From Escherichia coli (GTDB lineage Bacteria; Pseudomonadota; Gammaproteobacteria; Enterobacterales; Enterobacteriaceae): 64,000 nt of DNA. The stretch lies in NCBI RefSeq assembly GCF_013122565.1, contig NZ_CP053258.1; one strand, 5' to 3'. Positions 9,808-39,172 of this stretch are shown here, piece by piece. The translations under genes and the position numbers were made by a program. Under the pieces are notes generated by a model. The model was not told the DNA's origin. It worked only from the letters and a program-made list of their open reading frames with translations, and ran no database searches. Positions within the stretch are counted from its first letter, which is position 1; every line of letters starts with the position of its first letter.

Positions 9808-10197
9808 ATGAGCAACGTACCAGCAGAACTGAAATACAGCAAAGAACACGAATGGCTGCGTAAAGAAGCCGACGGCACTTATACCGTTGGCATCACCGAA
9901 CACGCTCAGGAGTTGTTGGGCGATATGGTGTTTGTTGACCTGCCGGAAGTGGGCGCGACGGTTAGCGCGGGCGATGACTGCGCGGTTGCCGAATCGGTAA
10001 AAGCGGCGTCAGACATTTATGCGCCAGTAAGCGGTGAAATCGTGGCGGTAAACGACGTACTGAGCGATTCCCCGGAACTGGTGAACAGCGAACCGTATGC
10101 AGGCGGCTGGATTTTCAAAATCAAAGCCAGCGATGAAAGCGAACTGGAATCACTGCTGGATGCGACCGCATACGAAGCATTGTTAGAAGACGAGTAA
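9808..10197 (+). CDS. gcvH: glycine cleavage system H protein (lipoyl carrier)
   Basis: 129 aa [17 protein letters not shown]..., lipoyl-lysine motif region ESVKAASD. Confidence 0.95.
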
Positions 10198-10228
10198 CGG
10201 CTTTATTCCTCTTCTGCGGGAGAGGATC

Positions 10229-10255
10229 AGGGTGAGGAAATTTACGCCTCACCCT
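10229..10255 (+). other. stem-loop in the gcvH-gcvP intergenic region
   Basis: perfect 9 bp inverted repeat agggtgagg / cctcaccct with a 9 nt loop; no following T-run. Confidence 0.4.
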
Positions 10256-10314
10256 CACTCTCTTCGTAAGGAGAGAGGTTCACAATTCACTGCACGTTTC
10301 AGGAACCATCGCTC

Positions 10315-13188
10315 ATGACACAGACGTTAAGCCAGCTTGAAAATAGCGGCGCTTTTATTGAACGCCATATCGGACCGGACGCCGCGCAACAGCAAGAAAT
10401 GCTGAATGCCGTTGGCGCACAATCGTTAAACGCGCTGACCGGCCAGATTGTACCGAAAGATATTCAGCTTGCGACCCCGCCGCAGGTTGGCGCACCGGCG
10501 ACCGAATACGCCGCGCTGGCGGAACTCAAGGCTATTGCCAGTCGCAATAAACGCTTCACGTCTTACATCGGCATGGGTTACACCGCCGTGCAGCTACCGC
10601 CGGTTATCCTGCGTAACATGCTGGAAAATCCGGGCTGGTATACCGCGTATACTCCGTATCAACCTGAAGTCTCCCAGGGCCGCCTTGAGGCACTGCTCAA
10701 TTTCCAGCAGGTAACGCTGGATTTAACCGGGCTGGATATGGCCTCTGCTTCTCTTCTTGACGAAGCCACCGCTGCCGCCGAAGCAATGGCGATGGCGAAA
10801 CGCGTCAGCAAACTGAAAAATGCCAACCGCTTCTTCGTGGCTTCCGATGTGCATCCGCAAACGCTGGATGTGGTACGTACTCGTGCCGAAACCTTTGGTT
10901 TTGAAGTGATTGTCGATGATGCGCAAAAAGTGCTCGACCACCAGGACGTCTTCGGCGTGCTGTTACAGCAGGTCGGCACTACTGGTGAAATTCACGACTA
11001 CACCACGCTTATTAGCGAACTGAAATCACGCAAAATTGTGGTCAGTGTCGCCGCCGATATTATGGCGCTGGTGCTGTTAACTGCGCCGGGTAAACAGGGC
11101 GCGGATATTGTCTTTGGTTCGGCGCAACGTTTCGGCGTGCCGATGGGCTACGGAGGCCCACACGCGGCATTCTTTGCGGCGAAAGATGAATACAAACGCT
11201 CAATGCCGGGCCGTATTATCGGTGTATCGAAAGATGCAGCTGGCAATACCGCACTGCGCATGGCGATGCAGACTCGCGAGCAACATATTCGTCGTGAGAA
11301 AGCGAACTCCAACATTTGTACTTCCCAGGTGCTGCTGGCAAACATCGCCAGCCTGTATGCCGTTTATCACGGCCCGGTTGGCCTGAAACGTATCGCTAAC
11401 CGCATTCACCGTCTGACCGATATCCTGGCGGCGGGCCTGCAACAAAAAGGTCTGAAACTGCGCCATGCGCACTATTTCGACACTCTGTGTGTGGAAGTGG
11501 CCGACAAGGCGGGCGTACTGGCGCGTGCCGAAGCGGCTGAAATCAACCTGCGTAGCGATATCCTGAACGCGGTTGGGATCACCCTTGATGAAACCACCAC
11601 GCGCGAAAACGTGATGCAGCTTTTCAGCGTACTGCTGGGGGATAACCACGGCCTGGACATCGACACGCTGGACAAAGACGTGGCTCACGACAGCCGCTCT
11701 ATCCAGCCTGCGATGCTGCGCGACGACGAAATCCTCACCCATCCGGTGTTTAATCGCTACCACAGCGAAACCGAAATGATGCGCTATATGCACTCGCTGG
11801 AGCGTAAAGATCTGGCGCTGAATCAGGCGATGATCCCGCTGGGTTCCTGCACTATGAAACTGAACGCCGCCGCCGAGATGATCCCCATCACCTGGCCGGA
11901 ATTTGCTGAACTGCATCCGTTCTGCCCGCCGGAGCAGGCCGAAGGTTATCAGCAGATGATTGCGCAGCTGGCTGACTGGCTGGTGAAACTGACCGGTTAC
12001 GACGCCGTTTGTATGCAGCCGAACTCTGGCGCACAGGGCGAATACGCGGGCCTGCTGGCGATTCGTCATTATCATGAAAGCCGCAACGAAGGGCATCGCG
12101 ATATCTGCCTGATCCCGGCTTCTGCGCACGGCACTAACCCTGCTTCTGCACATATGGCAGGAATGCAGGTGGTGGTTGTGGCGTGTGATAAAAACGGAAA
12201 TATCGATCTGACTGATCTGCGCGCGAAAGCCGAACAGGCAGGTGATAATCTCTCCTGCATCATGGTGACCTATCCTTCCACCCACGGTGTGTATGAAGAA
12301 ACGATCCGTGAAGTGTGTGAAGTCGTGCATCAGTTCGGCGGTCAGGTTTACCTTGATGGCGCGAACATGAACGCCCAGGTTGGCATCACCTCGCCAGGCT
12401 TTATTGGCGCGGACGTTTCGCACCTCAACCTGCATAAAACTTTCTGCATTCCGCACGGCGGTGGTGGTCCGGGTATGGGACCGATCGGCGTGAAAGCGCA
12501 TCTGGCACCGTTTGTACCGGGTCATAGCGTGGTACAAATTGAAGGCATGTTAACCCGTCAGGGCGCGGTTTCTGCGGCACCGTTCGGTAGCGCCTCTATC
12601 CTGCCAATCAGCTGGATGTACATCCGCATGATGGGCGCAGAAGGGCTGAAAAAAGCAAGCCAGGTGGCAATTCTTAACGCCAACTATATTGCCAGTCGCC
12701 TGCAGGATGCCTTCCCGGTGCTGTATACCGGTCGTGACGGTCGCGTGGCGCACGAATGTATTCTCGATATTCGTCCGTTGAAAGAAGAAACCGGCATCAG
12801 CGAGCTGGATATTGCCAAGCGCCTGATCGACTACGGTTTCCACGCGCCGACGATGTCGTTCCCGGTGGCGGGTACGCTGATGGTTGAACCGACTGAATCT
12901 GAAAGCAAAGTGGAACTGGATCGCTTTATCGACGCGATGCTGGCTATCCGCGCAGAAATTGACCAGGTGAAAGCCGGTATCTGGCCGCTGGAAGACAACC
13001 CGCTGGTGAACGCGCCGCACATTCAGAGCGAACTGGTCGCCGAGTGGGCGCATCCGTACAGCCGTGAAGTTGCGGTATTCCCGGCAGGCGTGGCAGACAA
13101 ATACTGGCCGACAGTGAAACGTCTGGATGATGTTTACGGCGACCGTAACCTGTTCTGCTCCTGCGTACCGATAAGCGAATACCAGTAA
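10315..13188 (+). CDS. gcvP: glycine dehydrogenase (decarboxylating), P protein
   Basis: 957 aa, PLP-dependent glycine decarboxylase family, [21 protein letters not shown]. Confidence 0.95.
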
Positions 13189-13210
13189 TTCACTGATTCG
13201 ACTATCTTCT

Positions 13211-13234
13211 AAAGGCGCTTCGGCGCCTTTTTAG
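13211..13234 (+). terminator. rho-independent terminator after gcvP
   Basis: aaaggcgcttcggcgccttttt hairpin with T-run. Confidence 0.65.
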
Positions 13235-13299
13235 CTTGTTAATAAAGTGCGCTTTGTGTGTCGGATGAAGCGTAAATATAAAATCCTGGAGTTCAATAT

Positions 13300-13350
13300 A
13301 TGACAGGAGCGCCAGGCCTGATGAGCGGGGCGCATCAGGCACATCGGGTA
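13300..13350. repeat. REP-like palindromic element
   Basis: gccaggcctgatgagcggggcgcatcaggc imperfect palindrome between convergent gcvP and bglA. Confidence 0.45.
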
Positions 13351-13351
13351 A

Positions 13352-34146: not shown

Positions 34147-37017
34147 TTATATTTTTTCCAGCGCAGTGAGTATTTTCTCCGGTGTGAAATGCCATTCGCG
34201 TAACCAGATGCCGCAGGCATCGTGAATTGCGGTAGCAATCGCCGGAGCTGCGCCATTTACACCGATTTCCGAGATCGATTTCGCCCCGAACGGGCCGACT
34301 TTATCGTCGCTCGGCACCAGCACAGCGCGGAAATCACGCGGAATGTCACCAATTTTCGGTGCGCCGTAACTGCGTAAATCACGCGTTAACGGGTGACCTT
34401 CGGCGTCATAAATGATCTCTTCGCTCATACTGTGGCCGATAGCACGCAGGGTGGCACCGTAGATTTGTCCCAACGCTAACTCTGGATTGACCGGTGTACC
34501 GCAGTCCAGCAAGGCGTAGAATTTATCCAGGCTGATTTCACCCGTACGCGTGTTGACGGCAACTTCAGCGAAGTTTGCGCCATACGGGAAAGCGAAATCA
34601 GGCGTGATATAACTGCCAGTTCCCACCAGTGAACCAAAGCCGGTGCCGGTTTCGCCTTTATGGGCAATATCCCCGAAACTAACTTCGCCTTTCTTGCCGC
34701 GCACGACGCCCGGCGTTGCTAGTTGAACATCTGCCACTGGCTCACCCAACATTTGCGCGCCGTGGAACAGAATTTTCTCCCGCAGATTTTCCGCTGCTAA
34801 ACGCGCCGCGTTACCCGAGAAGCAAGTACCGGACGAGGCATATGCGCCTTTATCAAACAACGCATGATCGGTATCACCGGAGATAACATGCACGTCCTGT
34901 GGTGGGCAGTGCAGCACTTCTGCTGCCAGTTTCGTCACCACAGTATCCAGACCAGTACCAATATCCGCACCGCCAGAATGAACAATAAAGGTGCCGTCCG
35001 ATTCCAGTTTGATCATGCAGTTAGCCTGATCGATATCCGGGATACCCGATTTCTGCATGATAATGGCGACGCCGCGACCGATGTGCCAGTCACCATTTTG
35101 CGGTTTCGGTGACGACCATTGGATCATCTCGCGACCCTGACGCAGGATCTCTTCCAGTGCGCAGCTGGCGGCGGAAGGAACGGAGGTTGGCGCTTTACCT
35201 TCACCGATTGCACCGAGAATTTTCAGCTCTTGCCCTTCGTGTACCCGGTTACGTTCGATAATTTCCAGTTGGTCGATCTGTAACTGTTCAGCCAGTTCCG
35301 CTAATGCCATGGTGATAGCGAAGTTACCTTTCGGTGCGCCATAACCCTGATAAGCACCATTTGGGCAAATGTTGCTGTAGTAGGTGGTGACCTGGAAATC
35401 GACGTTATCGCACGGATATAACGGCAGCGACAGCGCCGGTCCGTTACATGGTACGGTGAGTGAGTGGTTGCCGTAAGGGCCAGTGTTGGCGCGGAAATCC
35501 ATCTTCACTGCCGTCAGGCGACCATCTTTTTTCGCTCCCAGTTTGACGGTGACTTTCGCGACGTGACGAGAGGTGTTAGCAATAAACTCTTCTTCACGGG
35601 TGTAGCGGAACAGTACCGGACGCCCGGTCACGCAGGTTGCCCAGGCGCACACTTCTTCCAGCAGGATGTCCTGTTTGGAACCAAAACCGCCGCCAACTCG
35701 CTCTTTAATGACATGAACTTTATGCTGTTTCATGCCCACGAGGCGCGCGACCTGGCGGCGTAAGTGCCATGGTACCTGGGTGGAGGCGTGGATAACCAGA
35801 CGATCGCCGTCCATACGAGTAAAGCAGATATGTGTTTCAGTCGGGCACTGCTGCGCCTGCGTTGAGTTATAGGTTCGCTCAATGATCACATCGGCATCGG
35901 CAAAGCCTTTGTCCATATCGCCAATATGACCATGAATACTGGCGGCGATATTTTTGCGTGGACGAGAACCGATCGGGAAGTTGATGATCATATGCTCGCC
36001 GCGCTGGGCTGCATGGCTGTTATCGTCTTCCAGAGTATCTGGCGCACCAGCAACATACACCACCGGTTCATCGTGCACGACAGGCGCATCTTCCGCCATT
36101 GCTTCGTCGATCGACATTACCGGCTTAAGCACTTCATATTCAACGTCGATGAGCTTCAGTGCTTCGAGCGCAATTTCTTCACTTTCAGCGACCACCGCAG
36201 CAACGCGATCGCCGACGTGACGCATTTTCTTGCCGAACATACGGCGGTCAAGCGGTGACGGTTCCGGTGCGCTCTGCCCCCCCGGGGTATAGTAGATATC
36301 CGGGCAATTCAGGTGAGTAATAACGTGAACGACGCCCGGTAAGGCTTCAGCTTTGCTGACATCCAGATGAGTAATCAGTGCGTGAGCGTGTGGGCTACGT
36401 AACATTTTAATGACGCAGGCGTCAGCCGTTACGCGGTCTTCAACATAGCAGGGTTTCGCCTGCACCATTTTCGCGGCATCAGTTTTAGGATAATGCTTGC
36501 CAATGACGTCAAGGTCGTCACGGAAAGTCGGAGCGATATCAATGGTGGCCTGCGGATTATTTTTACGTGCAACCGCCAGTTCAATGACCTGATAGTATTG
36601 TTGCCAGCCTGCATCGCGGCTGAACAAACCAGAAAGCGCGTCGTCGATCTCTTCGCGGGTAGGTGCGGCGATACGATCGAGAAGATCGGTGATAATCAGA
36701 GCTGCAGCTGGATCGTTATAACCAGACTGCACCACGCCAACATCAACCATTGCCTGTTGAACCAGACTTAACTCGTTCCATTTGCCCAGAGATTCTGCGG
36801 TACGAATATCTGCCTTCTCTAACTGTGCGGCAATAAGCAAGGACGCGTTAACGATATTACCTTTAAAGATAATTGCGTCAGAACCGGCAAACCCAAAGCC
36901 ATCATCACTGTTGCGTACAGAGTGCATTCCCATGTTAAACAACAGATTCTGCACGTTTTCGCCTGGATTAACGGTTAGCTCCTGAGGCGCGCCATTTAAA
37001 GTAAAGTGGATGATCAT
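34147..37017 (-). CDS. xdhD: molybdopterin-dependent hydroxylase, fused [2Fe-2S] and Mo-binding subunit (xanthine-dehydrogenase family)
   Basis: 956 aa with N-terminal 2Fe-2S ferredoxin-like region followed by aldehyde oxidase / xanthine dehydrogenase Mo-binding domains. Confidence 0.9.
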   Translation of the reverse strand: MIIHFTLNGAPQELTVNPGENVQNLLFNMGMHSVRNSDDGFGFAGSDAIIFKGNIVNASLLIAAQLEKADIRTAESLGKWNELSLVQQAMVDVGVVQSGYNDPAAALIITDLLDRIAAPTREEIDDALSGLFSRDAGWQQYYQVIELAVARKNNPQATIDIAPTFRDDLDVIGKHYPKTDAAKMVQAKPCYVEDRVTADACVIKMLRSPHAHALITHLDVSKAEALPGVVHVITHLNCPDIYYTPGGQSAPEPSPLDRRMFGKKMRHVGDRVAAVVAESEEIALEALKLIDVEYEVLKPVMSIDEAMAEDAPVVHDEPVVYVAGAPDTLEDDNSHAAQRGEHMIINFPIGSRPRKNIAASIHGHIGDMDKGFADADVIIERTYNSTQAQQCPTETHICFTRMDGDRLVIHASTQVPWHLRRQVARLVGMKQHKVHVIKERVGGGFGSKQDILLEEVCAWATCVTGRPVLFRYTREEEFIANTSRHVAKVTVKLGAKKDGRLTAVKMDFRANTGPYGNHSLTVPCNGPALSLPLYPCDNVDFQVTTYYSNICPNGAYQGYGAPKGNFAITMALAELAEQLQIDQLEIIERNRVHEGQELKILGAIGEGKAPTSVPSAASCALEEILRQGREMIQWSSPKPQNGDWHIGRGVAIIMQKSGIPDIDQANCMIKLESDGTFIVHSGGADIGTGLDTVVTKLAAEVLHCPPQDVHVISGDTDHALFDKGAYASSGTCFSGNAARLAAENLREKILFHGAQMLGEPVADVQLATPGVVRGKKGEVSFGDIAHKGETGTGFGSLVGTGSYITPDFAFPYGANFAEVAVNTRTGEISLDKFYALLDCGTPVNPELALGQIYGATLRAIGHSMSEEIIYDAEGHPLTRDLRSYGAPKIGDIPRDFRAVLVPSDDKVGPFGAKSISEIGVNGAAPAIATAIHDACGIWLREWHFTPEKILTALEKI

Positions 37018-37793
37018 ACGGCTTCCTCCCCAGCCTGTTGGCAGTCGGCATACAGGTCGGCTACCAGAACTCCCGTGATATAGCGTTTATAGGCCACGCT
37101 GCCCCGCAAATCTTCCTGCGGGAAAATGGCGTTGGCGACAGCCTGTTCAAGTGCATTGCCTTCCAGATTTTGTTTTTCGACATCGTGCAGACGCAGTGCT
37201 TTACTGGCGACGCCATCCAGCGCAATTCGCATACCGTCGTGGTCTGTCATTGCAACGGCAGCCGTCACGACGGTTAAACCTGCCTGAGAACGGCTAATTT
37301 TGCGGGTCGCACAGGTACGATACGGATCTTTAATGATAATTTCAGTTAGCAGGCGATCGCATGGGCAGGCCAGGTAGTCCTCGATTGACAGCGTTTCGCC
37401 GTTGCCAAAAACCAGTTCAGCATCCAGTGCCAGCAGGACGGGAAGCAGCACCGACTCTTCCTGCCGGGCAGCGATTTCACCACCAATGGTCGACTGATTA
37501 CGAACATGGCGTGAGTAAACAAAACCGAGAGCTTCACGCAGTGCTGCAGGAATAAATCGCGCATCACGCAGTGGCTGCAAGCGAGACATTGCACCAATCC
37601 GCAGTGCACCGTTATCCCAGTCAACCCAGTCCAGTTCCAGATCCTGTAAGGAAATGGCAATCTTTTTATCGGTACGGGTTGGTGTAGCGTTGAGTTTGCT
37701 GCCCCCGGCGAACCAGACGGCTTCATCCTGGTAGCGGCGCTTCAGTTCCAGCGCCTGTTCGACAGAGTCGGGCCTGAAAAATTGTTCAATCAT
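37014..37793 (-). CDS. ygfM: FAD-binding subunit of a molybdo-hydroxylase (CoxM/XdhB-like)
   Basis: 259 aa; stop overlaps the xdhD start. Confidence 0.85.
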   Translation of the reverse strand: MIEQFFRPDSVEQALELKRRYQDEAVWFAGGSKLNATPTRTDKKIAISLQDLELDWVDWDNGALRIGAMSRLQPLRDARFIPAALREALGFVYSRHVRNQSTIGGEIAARQEESVLLPVLLALDAELVFGNGETLSIEDYLACPCDRLLTEIIIKDPYRTCATRKISRSQAGLTVVTAAVAMTDHDGMRIALDGVASKALRLHDVEKQNLEGNALEQAVANAIFPQEDLRGSVAYKRYITGVLVADLYADCQQAGEEAV

Positions 37794-37843
37794 CTTCTTT
37801 CCTTATTTAACCCTCTTCCCTGCGGGAAGAGGGCATCTGTCAT

Positions 37844-39172
37844 TTATGCCAGCGCATCCATCCGACGCCACATACTGGCAGCGGCTTTTCTGGCTTGTGC
37901 ATAAATGGAATCGCAATCGAAGTTAAACTGACGGTCTTCATAGACCATCACACCATTGACCATCACGCTGTGAACGCTGCCTGAGCCCATACCGAAAGCG
38001 ATATGCCCGGCGATATTGTCTGCCAGCAGCGGCGTCGGCGAGTTGTAATCGCAAATGGTTAAATCAGCTTTGTAACCGGCTTCCAGAAGCCCAAATTTCG
38101 CGCCAAAGTTGCGACTCATCAGTTCGTTACCGTTAGTCAGGGCTTTGGCAAAACTGTCAGGCCACAGCGGACCACCCGCATCGCGATGTTTAAAGAAGGC
38201 AAATTTCATCTCTTCAAACATGTCCGAACCAATGCCGTCCGTTCCCAACGCCAGATTGCGGATGTCGCTAAGGTGATGGTTGTAGCCGACATGGTTGTTC
38301 ATGTTTGAACGGGCGTTATGCACCAGGAACGCATCGCGCTGATTGAGTAGGGCGATGTCATCTTTCGACAAGTACAGCCCATGAGCGACCAGCGTTTTGC
38401 TGTCGATGAGATCGAATTGCGCCAGTCGTGCCAGCAGGTCTTTGCCGTACCTGTGGTGACTGTAGGAAACGTCGTAAAGGTCTTCCGCAGCGTGAATATG
38501 CAAACCACGGCCTGTGGCTTTCACGGCTTCACGCAGCATCTCCAGACCGGCATCTGGCACGGTAAACGGTGCGTGAGCGCCGATATGTGCTTCCACCAGA
38601 TACGGCTCGGTTGCTGCTTTCTTCGCCTCATCAATCTGACGGGCGAAGCGGATGTTTTCTTCTACACCTTCCTGCAACTCTTTGATGCCGTTGTTACGGT
38701 CAGTAGTTTCAAAACAGGTCATCGCGCGCAGGCCAACTTTTAAAAATGCGTCGCGCAATGTGGAGAGCGACCCGCCGATATACGCCGGAGAGGCATGGTG
38801 ATCGATAACCGATGTACATCCGCTCTTAATCGCTTCCAGGGAGCAAATCAGCCCGCTGTAATAGAGCGACTCTTCATCAAGGGCGCGATCGAGCCGCCAC
38901 CAGAGATTTTTCAGCGTTGAGATGAAATCCGGGCAGGGGGCGATGTTTGCCATAATTCCGCGGGAAAGCCCCGAGTAAAAATGGTTGTGCGAGCAGACAA
39001 TTCCCGGCATCACAATCCGACCATGCATCTCTTTGTAGCTGGCATCGGGGTAGCGTTGCGTCAGGGCATCTCCGATAGCGACAATCACATCATTTTCGAT
39101 AGCGATATCAACGCCTTCCTGCACTTTCGCCGGGTGTAACTGCACTGCGGTGACATTCTTCAGAATCAACAT
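37844..39172 (-). CDS. ssnA: amidohydrolase-superfamily protein (chlorohydrolase / deaminase-like)
   Basis: 442 aa with metal-binding HxH near the N-terminus (SHNHFYSG). Confidence 0.85.
   Translation of the reverse strand: MLILKNVTAVQLHPAKVQEGVDIAIENDVIVAIGDALTQRYPDASYKEMHGRIVMPGIVCSHNHFYSGLSRGIMANIAPCPDFISTLKNLWWRLDRALDEESLYYSGLICSLEAIKSGCTSVIDHHASPAYIGGSLSTLRDAFLKVGLRAMTCFETTDRNNGIKELQEGVEENIRFARQIDEAKKAATEPYLVEAHIGAHAPFTVPDAGLEMLREAVKATGRGLHIHAAEDLYDVSYSHHRYGKDLLARLAQFDLIDSKTLVAHGLYLSKDDIALLNQRDAFLVHNARSNMNNHVGYNHHLSDIRNLALGTDGIGSDMFEEMKFAFFKHRDAGGPLWPDSFAKALTNGNELMSRNFGAKFGLLEAGYKADLTICDYNSPTPLLADNIAGHIAFGMGSGSVHSVMVNGVMVYEDRQFNFDCDSIYAQARKAAASMWRRMDALA

Follow-up and report, generated by a model that had tools for sequence, protein, structure and literature searches.

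Within the gcvTHP operon of Escherichia coli, the gap between gcvH and gcvP holds three tandem hairpins that resemble a degenerate inverted pair of the BoxC/PIT/TMECO repeat family, and the strongest RNA 3' end listed for the operon lies at the foot of the central hairpin. We favor, with moderate confidence, a reading in which this central hairpin (H2) acts in the manner of a REP element: it would define and protect the 3' end of the gcvTH RNA and block 3'-to-5' decay, with gcvTH RNA accumulating over gcvP. This would give an explanation to an unannotated structure within a textbook operon. All window positions refer to the whole stretch of E. coli DNA that was analyzed, 64,000 nucleotides in length (the window).

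Three tandem hairpins lie between gcvH and gcvP

The preliminary description of this DNA reported a perfect 9-bp hairpin with a 9-nt loop in the 117-nt gap between gcvH and gcvP, and the sequence reads as stated (Table 1). No other hairpin of the gap had been reported. The hairpin is indeed there, but it has a neighbor on either side: it is H2 of a set H1 to H3, which together occupy positions 10207-10277. H1 begins 10 nt past the gcvH stop codon; H2 is the strongest of the three and H3 the weakest. Jointly they form an imperfect palindrome around the H2 loop with arms of 29 nt, and H3 repeats H1 in direct orientation.

Table 1. Positions of the gcvTHP genes, hairpins, repeat halves and RNA 3' end in the window. 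Energies are given in kcal/mol.
Feature	Position	Strand	Description	Basis
gcvT	ends 9784	+	first gene of gcvTHP in the window	
gcvH CDS	9808..10197	+	129 aa	ORF list and translation; collinear with the K-12 annotation
gcvH stop codon	10195-10197	+	5' border of the 117-nt gcvH-gcvP gap	
H1	10207..10226	+	TCCTCTTC-TGCG-GGAGAGGA; 8 bp with one G-U; -11.8	
Left BoxC/TMECO-like half	10208..10237	+	CCTCTTCT gcgg GAGAGG atc AGGGTGAGG	TMECO profile
H2	10229..10255	+	AGGGTGAGG (10229-10237), loop AAATTTACG of 9 nt, CCTCACCCT (10247-10255); perfect 9 bp; -15.2	
Right BoxC/TMECO-like half, inverted	10247..10278	-	CCTCTCTCC ttac GAAGAGAG tg AGGGTGAGG	TMECO profile
H3	10258..10277	+	CTCTCTTC-GTAA-GGAGAGAG; 8 bp with one G-U; -10.6	
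Equivalent of the 3049097(-) RNA 3' end	10259	+		K-12-to-window mapping via alignments A1 and A2
gcvP leader	10285..10314	+	ATTCACTGCACGTTTCAGGAACCATCGCTC with Shine-Dalgarno-like AGGAA	80-species spacer comparison, alignment A2
gcvP CDS	10315..13188	+	957 aa; downstream gene; ATG at 10315	

The spacer folds with a free energy of -44.4 kcal/mol (z = -4.36), and none of 200 shuffled sequences was equally stable. In the mRNA context the outermost pair of each stem has a pair probability of 0.82-0.87 and every other pair exceeds 0.9. Taken by itself, a stem of nine perfect pairs stands out only mildly: nine-mer matches of this kind number 14 in the window, spread over 9 loci, where Markov simulations gave 3.0 +/- 2.3, and the chance of finding one inside a 117-nt gap is about 0.5%. 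No T-run follows H2. The next bases are CACTCTCTTCG, and of the two components of an intrinsic terminator, a GC stem and a U-tract, H2 has the stem; the consensus terminator scan did not flag it. The absence of a U-tract noted in the preliminary description is thereby confirmed. Scans for promoters and terminators in the gcvH-gcvP spacer returned no match.

The hairpins resemble a degenerate BoxC inverted pair

BoxC, PIT and TMECO are names of one repeat family (Bachellier et al.; Hoyne & Maher; Holder et al. 2015). The TMECO/BoxC consensus is CCCTCNCCC-N3-6-GGGNGAGGG-N3-GGGNGAGGG, and under the strict definition no more than one base pair of the stem may be mismatched; MG1655 carries 23 TMECO copies, with five sites formed by inverted pairs (Holder et al. 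2015, PMC4666352). Across the literature the number of BoxC copies is given as 23-32. We built a profile HMM (nhmmer) from the 23 published K-12 copies and searched the 64-kb window with it. Its top match, at 10216-10237, scores 12.3 bits with an E-value of 0.012, and the mirror match at 10278-10248, weak when taken alone (E 6.9), is exactly adjacent and inverted. Of 150 simulated 64-kb windows none reached 12.3 bits (maximum 8.1), and an adjacent pair of matches on opposite strands did not occur in any of them.

The element shares with BoxC the order of its blocks (a pyrimidine block, a short loop, a purine block, 3 nt and a GGGTGAGG block) as well as its intergenic location. It also has the layout of an inverted pair that gives three hairpins, with outer Y/R hairpins around a central GGGTGAGG/CCTCACCC stem, as at the five K-12 sites. 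H1 is the counterpart of the C-block/G-block hairpin of the left half, and the arms of H2 are the outer G-blocks of both inverted halves. The three-hairpin layout agrees in particular with that of the K-12 BoxC pair downstream of gcvP. On the other hand, the blocks of the gcvH-gcvP copy are enriched in A/T (CCTCTTCT, CTCTCTTC), and its 3-nt linkers are ATC and CA, compared with TTA and CCG. The G-block pattern GGGNGAGGGNNNGGGNGAGGG matches in the left half with 2 mismatches, the C-block TCCTCTTCT is off consensus at about 3 positions by direct reading, and altogether the copy deviates from the strict consensus at roughly 5 of the 25 specified positions. The 23 K-12 copies listed in print do not include it. 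Because the strict consensus fails and the copy is missing from that list, we file it as degenerate. A blastn search of 5,426 E. coli genomes placed the spacer at one place per genome (median 1), so that dispersed copies of the exact spacer sequence were rejected and family membership is argued by the profile instead. On these sequence grounds the gcvH-gcvP element is best described as a degenerate BoxC inverted pair, a non-canonical member of the family.

The suggestion that the hairpin might be REP-like holds in part. The element belongs to a family of palindromic repeats, as REP does, and REP/BIME as well as ERIC repeats occupy the same spot in other genera (see below), but the E. coli spacer contains no REP consensus (a GCCGGATG...CATCCGGC-type palindromic unit) and the element has no sequence similarity to REP.

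A second BoxC-like hairpin, the second-best match to the TMECO profile in the window (E 1.2), is found on the minus strand at 37811-37833. It reads CCCTCTTCCC-GCA-GGGAAGAGGG followed by TTA, with a perfect 10-bp stem, and sits in a 50-nt gap of an apparent operon between the minus-strand ORFs 37844-39172 (442 aa) and 37014-37793 (259 aa). The sizes of these ORFs would fit ssnA and ygfM.

A dominant RNA 3' end lies just past the central stem

Published Term-seq data from MG1655 place a dominant RNA 3' end at 3049097(-) (Adams et al. 2021, Supplementary file 1). It is entered there as TCTTCTGCGGGAGAGGATCAGGGTGAGGAAAATTTATGCCTCACCCTCAC[T]CTCTTCGTAA; in such entries the 3' end occupies position 51, a convention that we verified on the CCA end of glyU tRNA. 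The RNA thus terminates in ...CCUCACCCU-CACU-3', 4 nt past H2 and within the 5' arm of H3. Across the file, whose three tabs cover different growth conditions, the end appears three times, and two of the three entries carry scores of 412,219 and 171,112, whereas the gcvP terminator end at 3046123 scores 36,065 (Adams et al. 2021). With about 11 times the score of the gcvP terminator it is the strongest 3' end listed for the gcv operon, and its score is comparable to that of the 6S RNA listing. It had been classed only as 'orphan', solely because it lies more than 50 nt beyond gcvH, and can now be tied to a specific hairpin. In E. coli, stable stem-loops that lack a U-tract have been shown to set 3' ends produced by exonuclease trimming (Dar & Sorek 2018, PMC6061677). 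H2, free of a U-tract and followed by a published 3' end, has the features of this class. It differs from the Rho-dependent ends described by Dar & Sorek in that no Rho-dependent termination was detected downstream of H2: Adams et al. list no Rho termination region near 3049097(-), and the nearest 3' end inside gcvP has a Rho score of 1.31 and is called 'No'. The position of the RNA end and the missing U-tract agree with the preliminary description, which had preferred an mRNA stability or processing element over a terminator. In the portion covered of one published RNase III data set there is no gcvH-gcvP entry, which carries no weight either way.

Such an end might also be produced by transcription itself. 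In this case H2 would be a non-canonical internal terminator or attenuator at which RNA polymerase is partially released, possibly aided by NusA/NusG, and would be the counterpart of the canonical intrinsic terminator found after gcvH in more distant relatives. We judge this unlikely, though it is the competing explanation to which we give most weight. Intrinsic terminators usually release the RNA 7-9 nt past the stem, whereas the end observed here is only 4 nt away, and the tail CACUCUCUUCG offers no U-tract. PIT elements, moreover, showed neither promoter nor terminator activity and left RNA polymerase unaffected in earlier reporter assays, as far as that work is cited in PMC4666352. What speaks for termination is the precision and strength of the E. 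coli 3' end, with no Rho region reported nearby, and the canonical GC stem with a T-run that stands at the equivalent position in Photorhabdus, Yersinia, Pectobacterium, Dickeya, Serratia, Providencia and Shewanella. In Dickeya dadantii termination at the canonical terminator after gcvH amounts to 71 +/- 22%, which the authors state to agree with long-read studies in E. coli (PMC9239193). The SMRT-Cappable-seq paper that they cite for E. coli does not mention gcv in the accessible part of its text. Taken together, we hold that stalling of exonucleases, not termination, would be the source of the 3' end.

A stable RNA with a function of its own would likewise leave an abundant 3' end. The high Term-seq score, which is in the range of 6S RNA, and the structured 3' end would suit a 3' UTR-derived sRNA with its own regulatory role, consisting of the roughly 60-nt gcvH tail that ends at H2. 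However, a RIL-seq-based predictor assigns gcvP.gcvH.IGT a probability of 0.003-0.004 (12-20 chimeras), a permissive Rfam scan of the spacer gave only chance-level matches (miRNA, whalefall-1) far below gathering scores, and the sequence is not conserved outside Escherichia. Of all the explanations weighed here we find this the least credible. An Hfq-dependent sRNA in particular was rejected on the predictor probability of about 0.003.

RNA 3' ends are found next to canonical BoxC elements as well. At the BoxC sites 847200, 3781065, 3959467 and 4231270, Term-seq ends fall 3-4 nt past a CCCTCTCCC/GGGAGAGGG-type stem, the one at 3781065 being the lldD primary end, and at site 632098 the end lies 10 nt past the stem. 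RNA 3' ends just past the stem look like a general property of the BoxC family, which the gcvH-gcvP copy shares with the difference that its end follows the central stem and not an outer one. Our literature search found no paper noting that BoxC hairpins coincide with Term-seq 3' ends, and nothing beyond Holder et al. that links BoxC to RNA 3' ends.

Different repeats occupy the same site in other species

We compared the gcvH-gcvP gap across 80 species, with loci of about 280 kb in total. The length of the spacer varies from 8 to 445 nt. The gcvP leader is the sole part of it that is conserved across Enterobacteriaceae, and no conservation of the H1-H2 sequence was found outside Escherichia in this comparison. 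The gap contains REP/BIME in Citrobacter, Lelliottia, some Enterobacter, Trabulsiella and Pluralibacter, and ERIC in C. koseri, C. youngae CCUG, Kluyvera, Providencia and Serratia marcescens; a Providencia MAG carries three tandem ERIC copies in a gap of 445 nt. In Enterobacter cloacae, E. asburiae, Pseudocitrobacter, Buttiauxella, Siccibacter and others it contains a three-hairpin element with the pattern CCCTCTCCC-loop-GGGAGAGGG, GGGGTGAGGG-loop-CCCTCACCC, CCCTCTCCC-loop-GGGAGAGGG, which is the BoxC/PIT/TMECO repeat. Canonical BoxC matches with E-values of 1e-6 to 1e-10 occur in the orthologous spacers of seven other species, among them Enterobacter cloacae, E. asburiae, Pseudocitrobacter, Buttiauxella and Pluralibacter, and form inverted pairs in Enterobacter and Pseudocitrobacter. 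In six of the loci (L010, L013, L018, L023, L027 and L050) the match starts 7-10 nt past the gcvH stop and in a seventh (L029) about 20 nt past it; with this exception the gap repeats all begin within about 10 nt of the stop. The only other TMECO matches in the roughly 280 kb of loci belong to the known K-12 pair after gcvP.

In 75 of the 79 species with data, gcvH is followed by a hairpin at least as stable as -15 kcal/mol. Outside Enterobacteriaceae it mostly consists of a GC stem and a T-run directly after the stop, as in the seven genera named above. Erwinia and Rosenbergiella, with spacers of 23 and 8 nt, have hardly any gap and no hairpin. What fills the single functional slot for a stable post-gcvH hairpin would differ between lineages, from a canonical terminator to BoxC, REP or ERIC, which makes this a nice example of a regulatory hairpin superseded by repeats. 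Across genera (alignment A3), 81.3% of the cells were paired compared with 80.5% in shuffled alignments, and 120 of 500 shuffles were as high, in a test whose low-complexity pyrimidine/purine arms leave the register ambiguous. Since this covariation is not significant, selection on RNA pairing is suggested rather than demonstrated.

The gcvP leader ATTCACTGCACGTTTCAGGAACCATCGCTC is nearly invariant in loci L003-L035, while all sequence 5' of it is swapped. It could itself form a small hairpin (UUCACUG...CAGGAA) that takes in the AGGAA motif.

The element is fixed in E. coli with intact stems

Within the species, all but one of 5426 complete E. coli genomes (5425) carry the element. Eight haplotypes differ at 5 columns, none of them outside the H2 and H3 loops; the H2 loop varies at 4 columns and the H3 loop is either GTAA or GCAA, whereas the stems and flanks are invariant. 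With 8 haplotypes sampled, this could reflect mutation-prone loops rather than constrained stems. In an Escherichia lineage outside E. coli proper (L005) the structure is kept and the central stem extends to 16 bp.

Larger differences were seen in one strain and downstream of the operon. In E. coli VTB96775v (L002, 1426-1595) the spacer measures 170 nt compared with 117 nt in the window. A 52-nt insertion, an inverted duplication of the H2 3' arm and H3, creates a long perfect palindrome of -96 kcal/mol, and the H3 loop is inverted (CCTTACGA vs TCGTAAGG). From its sequence the insertion looks like the outcome of template switching at a quasi-palindrome. K-12 carries a canonical BoxC inverted pair (TMECO 10 and 11) together with ygfF between the gcvP terminator and bglA (L083, 2560-2860). 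Relative to K-12, a 1,020-bp segment is replaced in the window region 13189-13351 by 117 bp (13235-13351) that hold a REP-like palindrome, ggcctgatgagcggggcgcatcaggc. With the K-12 pair after gcvP missing in the window, the canonical pair is strain-variable and the degenerate one inside the operon is fixed.

These patterns bear on whether the element does anything at all. It might be a neutral remnant, with no role in gcv expression, of a repeat that spread selfishly or passively, in a spacer that tolerates insertions, with a 3' end that is an inconsequential decay intermediate. A spacer that ranges from 8 to 445 nt, harbors REP/BIME, ERIC or BoxC according to genus and in some genera lacks the hairpin altogether would suit such a history. 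So would the non-significant covariation and the finding that BoxC elements show no functional or positional bias (Holder et al., PMC4666352). Neutrality is nevertheless hard to square with an element that is fixed, that has kept all three stems intact despite drift from the family consensus, with polymorphism in the loops only, and whose K-12 relatives 3 kb downstream are missing from the window. A Term-seq peak about 11-fold above that of the gcvP terminator and the recurrence of a stable post-gcvH hairpin through unrelated sequences also argue against it. The stable 3' end could still be a harmless decay intermediate; we regard neutrality of the element as improbable, and slightly more so than termination at H2.

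The element might instead act mainly at the level of DNA, where a quasi-palindrome or a possible triplex would favor rearrangement, consistent with the proposed instability of BoxC/TMECO. TMECO sites have been linked with rearrangement and genomic instability (Holder et al., PMC4666352), the inverted duplication and loop inversion in VTB96775v are rearrangements at this very spot, and the K-12 BoxC pair after gcvP is missing in the window along with neighboring ygfF. When the left half is arranged by hand as a purine-motif triplex, about 7 of 8 triads are possible, with a T-G mismatch in the duplex. Yet 5 of the 25 positions that the triplex consensus specifies differ in this copy, and only 3 of the 5425 genomes fall below 95% identity at the spacer, which is therefore a very stable locus; in this fixation the gcvH-gcvP copy differs from canonical copies, which are described as unstable. 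A role in DNA rearrangement would also leave the RNA 3' end unexplained. We consider it highly unlikely.

H2 may protect the gcvTH transcript from decay

Protection of gcvTH RNA by H2, the reading that we prefer, would work as follows. Once gcvTHP mRNA is made, the BoxC-like pair would fold into three tandem hairpins. PNPase and RNase II would enter in the 3'-to-5' direction, most likely from a downstream cleavage or termination point, and are assumed to pass the weaker H3 and to stall at the foot of H2, which as the most stable hairpin would mark the steady-state 3' end of the gcvT-gcvH transcript. As a consequence of this stalling the gcvTH segment would outlive the gcvP segment, and the hairpin would probably leave more gcvT-gcvH than gcvP message. 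The ratio of P to T and H proteins might change through the element; for this we draw on the analogy with the 71 +/- 22% termination in Dickeya.

REP/BIME elements within operons, such as that between malE and malF, are mRNA stabilizers. Like them, the gcvH-gcvP element is a stable stem-loop that sits between genes of an operon and lacks a U-tract, with a precise 3' end directly downstream and an upstream message that is expected to be shielded from PNPase and RNase II; true REPs even occupy the equivalent gap in Citrobacter, Lelliottia and some Enterobacter. Its action would be that of these stabilizers or of the protective stem-loops, equally free of a U-tract, that are found at Rho-dependent 3' ends. 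With the internal terminators of Dickeya and other Enterobacterales it shares the position directly after the gcvH stop and the proposed outcome, more gcvTH than gcvP transcript. Those terminators, however, are made of a GC stem and a T-run, while the E. coli element lacks the T-run and is repeat-derived.

We know of no function assigned to BoxC/PIT elements since the 1990s. The RNA ends described here may give them a concrete role at the RNA level, as REP-like 3'-end anchors, where earlier reporter work saw no activity. More tentatively, BoxC/PIT elements in general might be 3'-end-defining stem-loops that block exonucleases. The gcvH-gcvP copy would then have been domesticated in Escherichia in place of an ancestral internal terminator, keeping its hairpins amid sequence drift and tuning the gcvTH:gcvP ratio; this broader scenario is possible but doubtful. 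Current understanding is not overturned by any of this: the element is a diverged addition to a known repeat family that would act in a known way.

Two further 3' ends are listed at the start of the operon. One lies in the gcvT 5' leader with a score of 80,101, and the other lies 65 nt inside gcvT with scores of 105,625 and 81,687 and a Rho score of 0.67, called 'No' (Adams et al. 2021). They correspond to window positions ~8634 and ~8755, or 3050723 and 3050602 on the minus strand of K-12, and suggest premature 3' ends at the beginning of gcvTHP.
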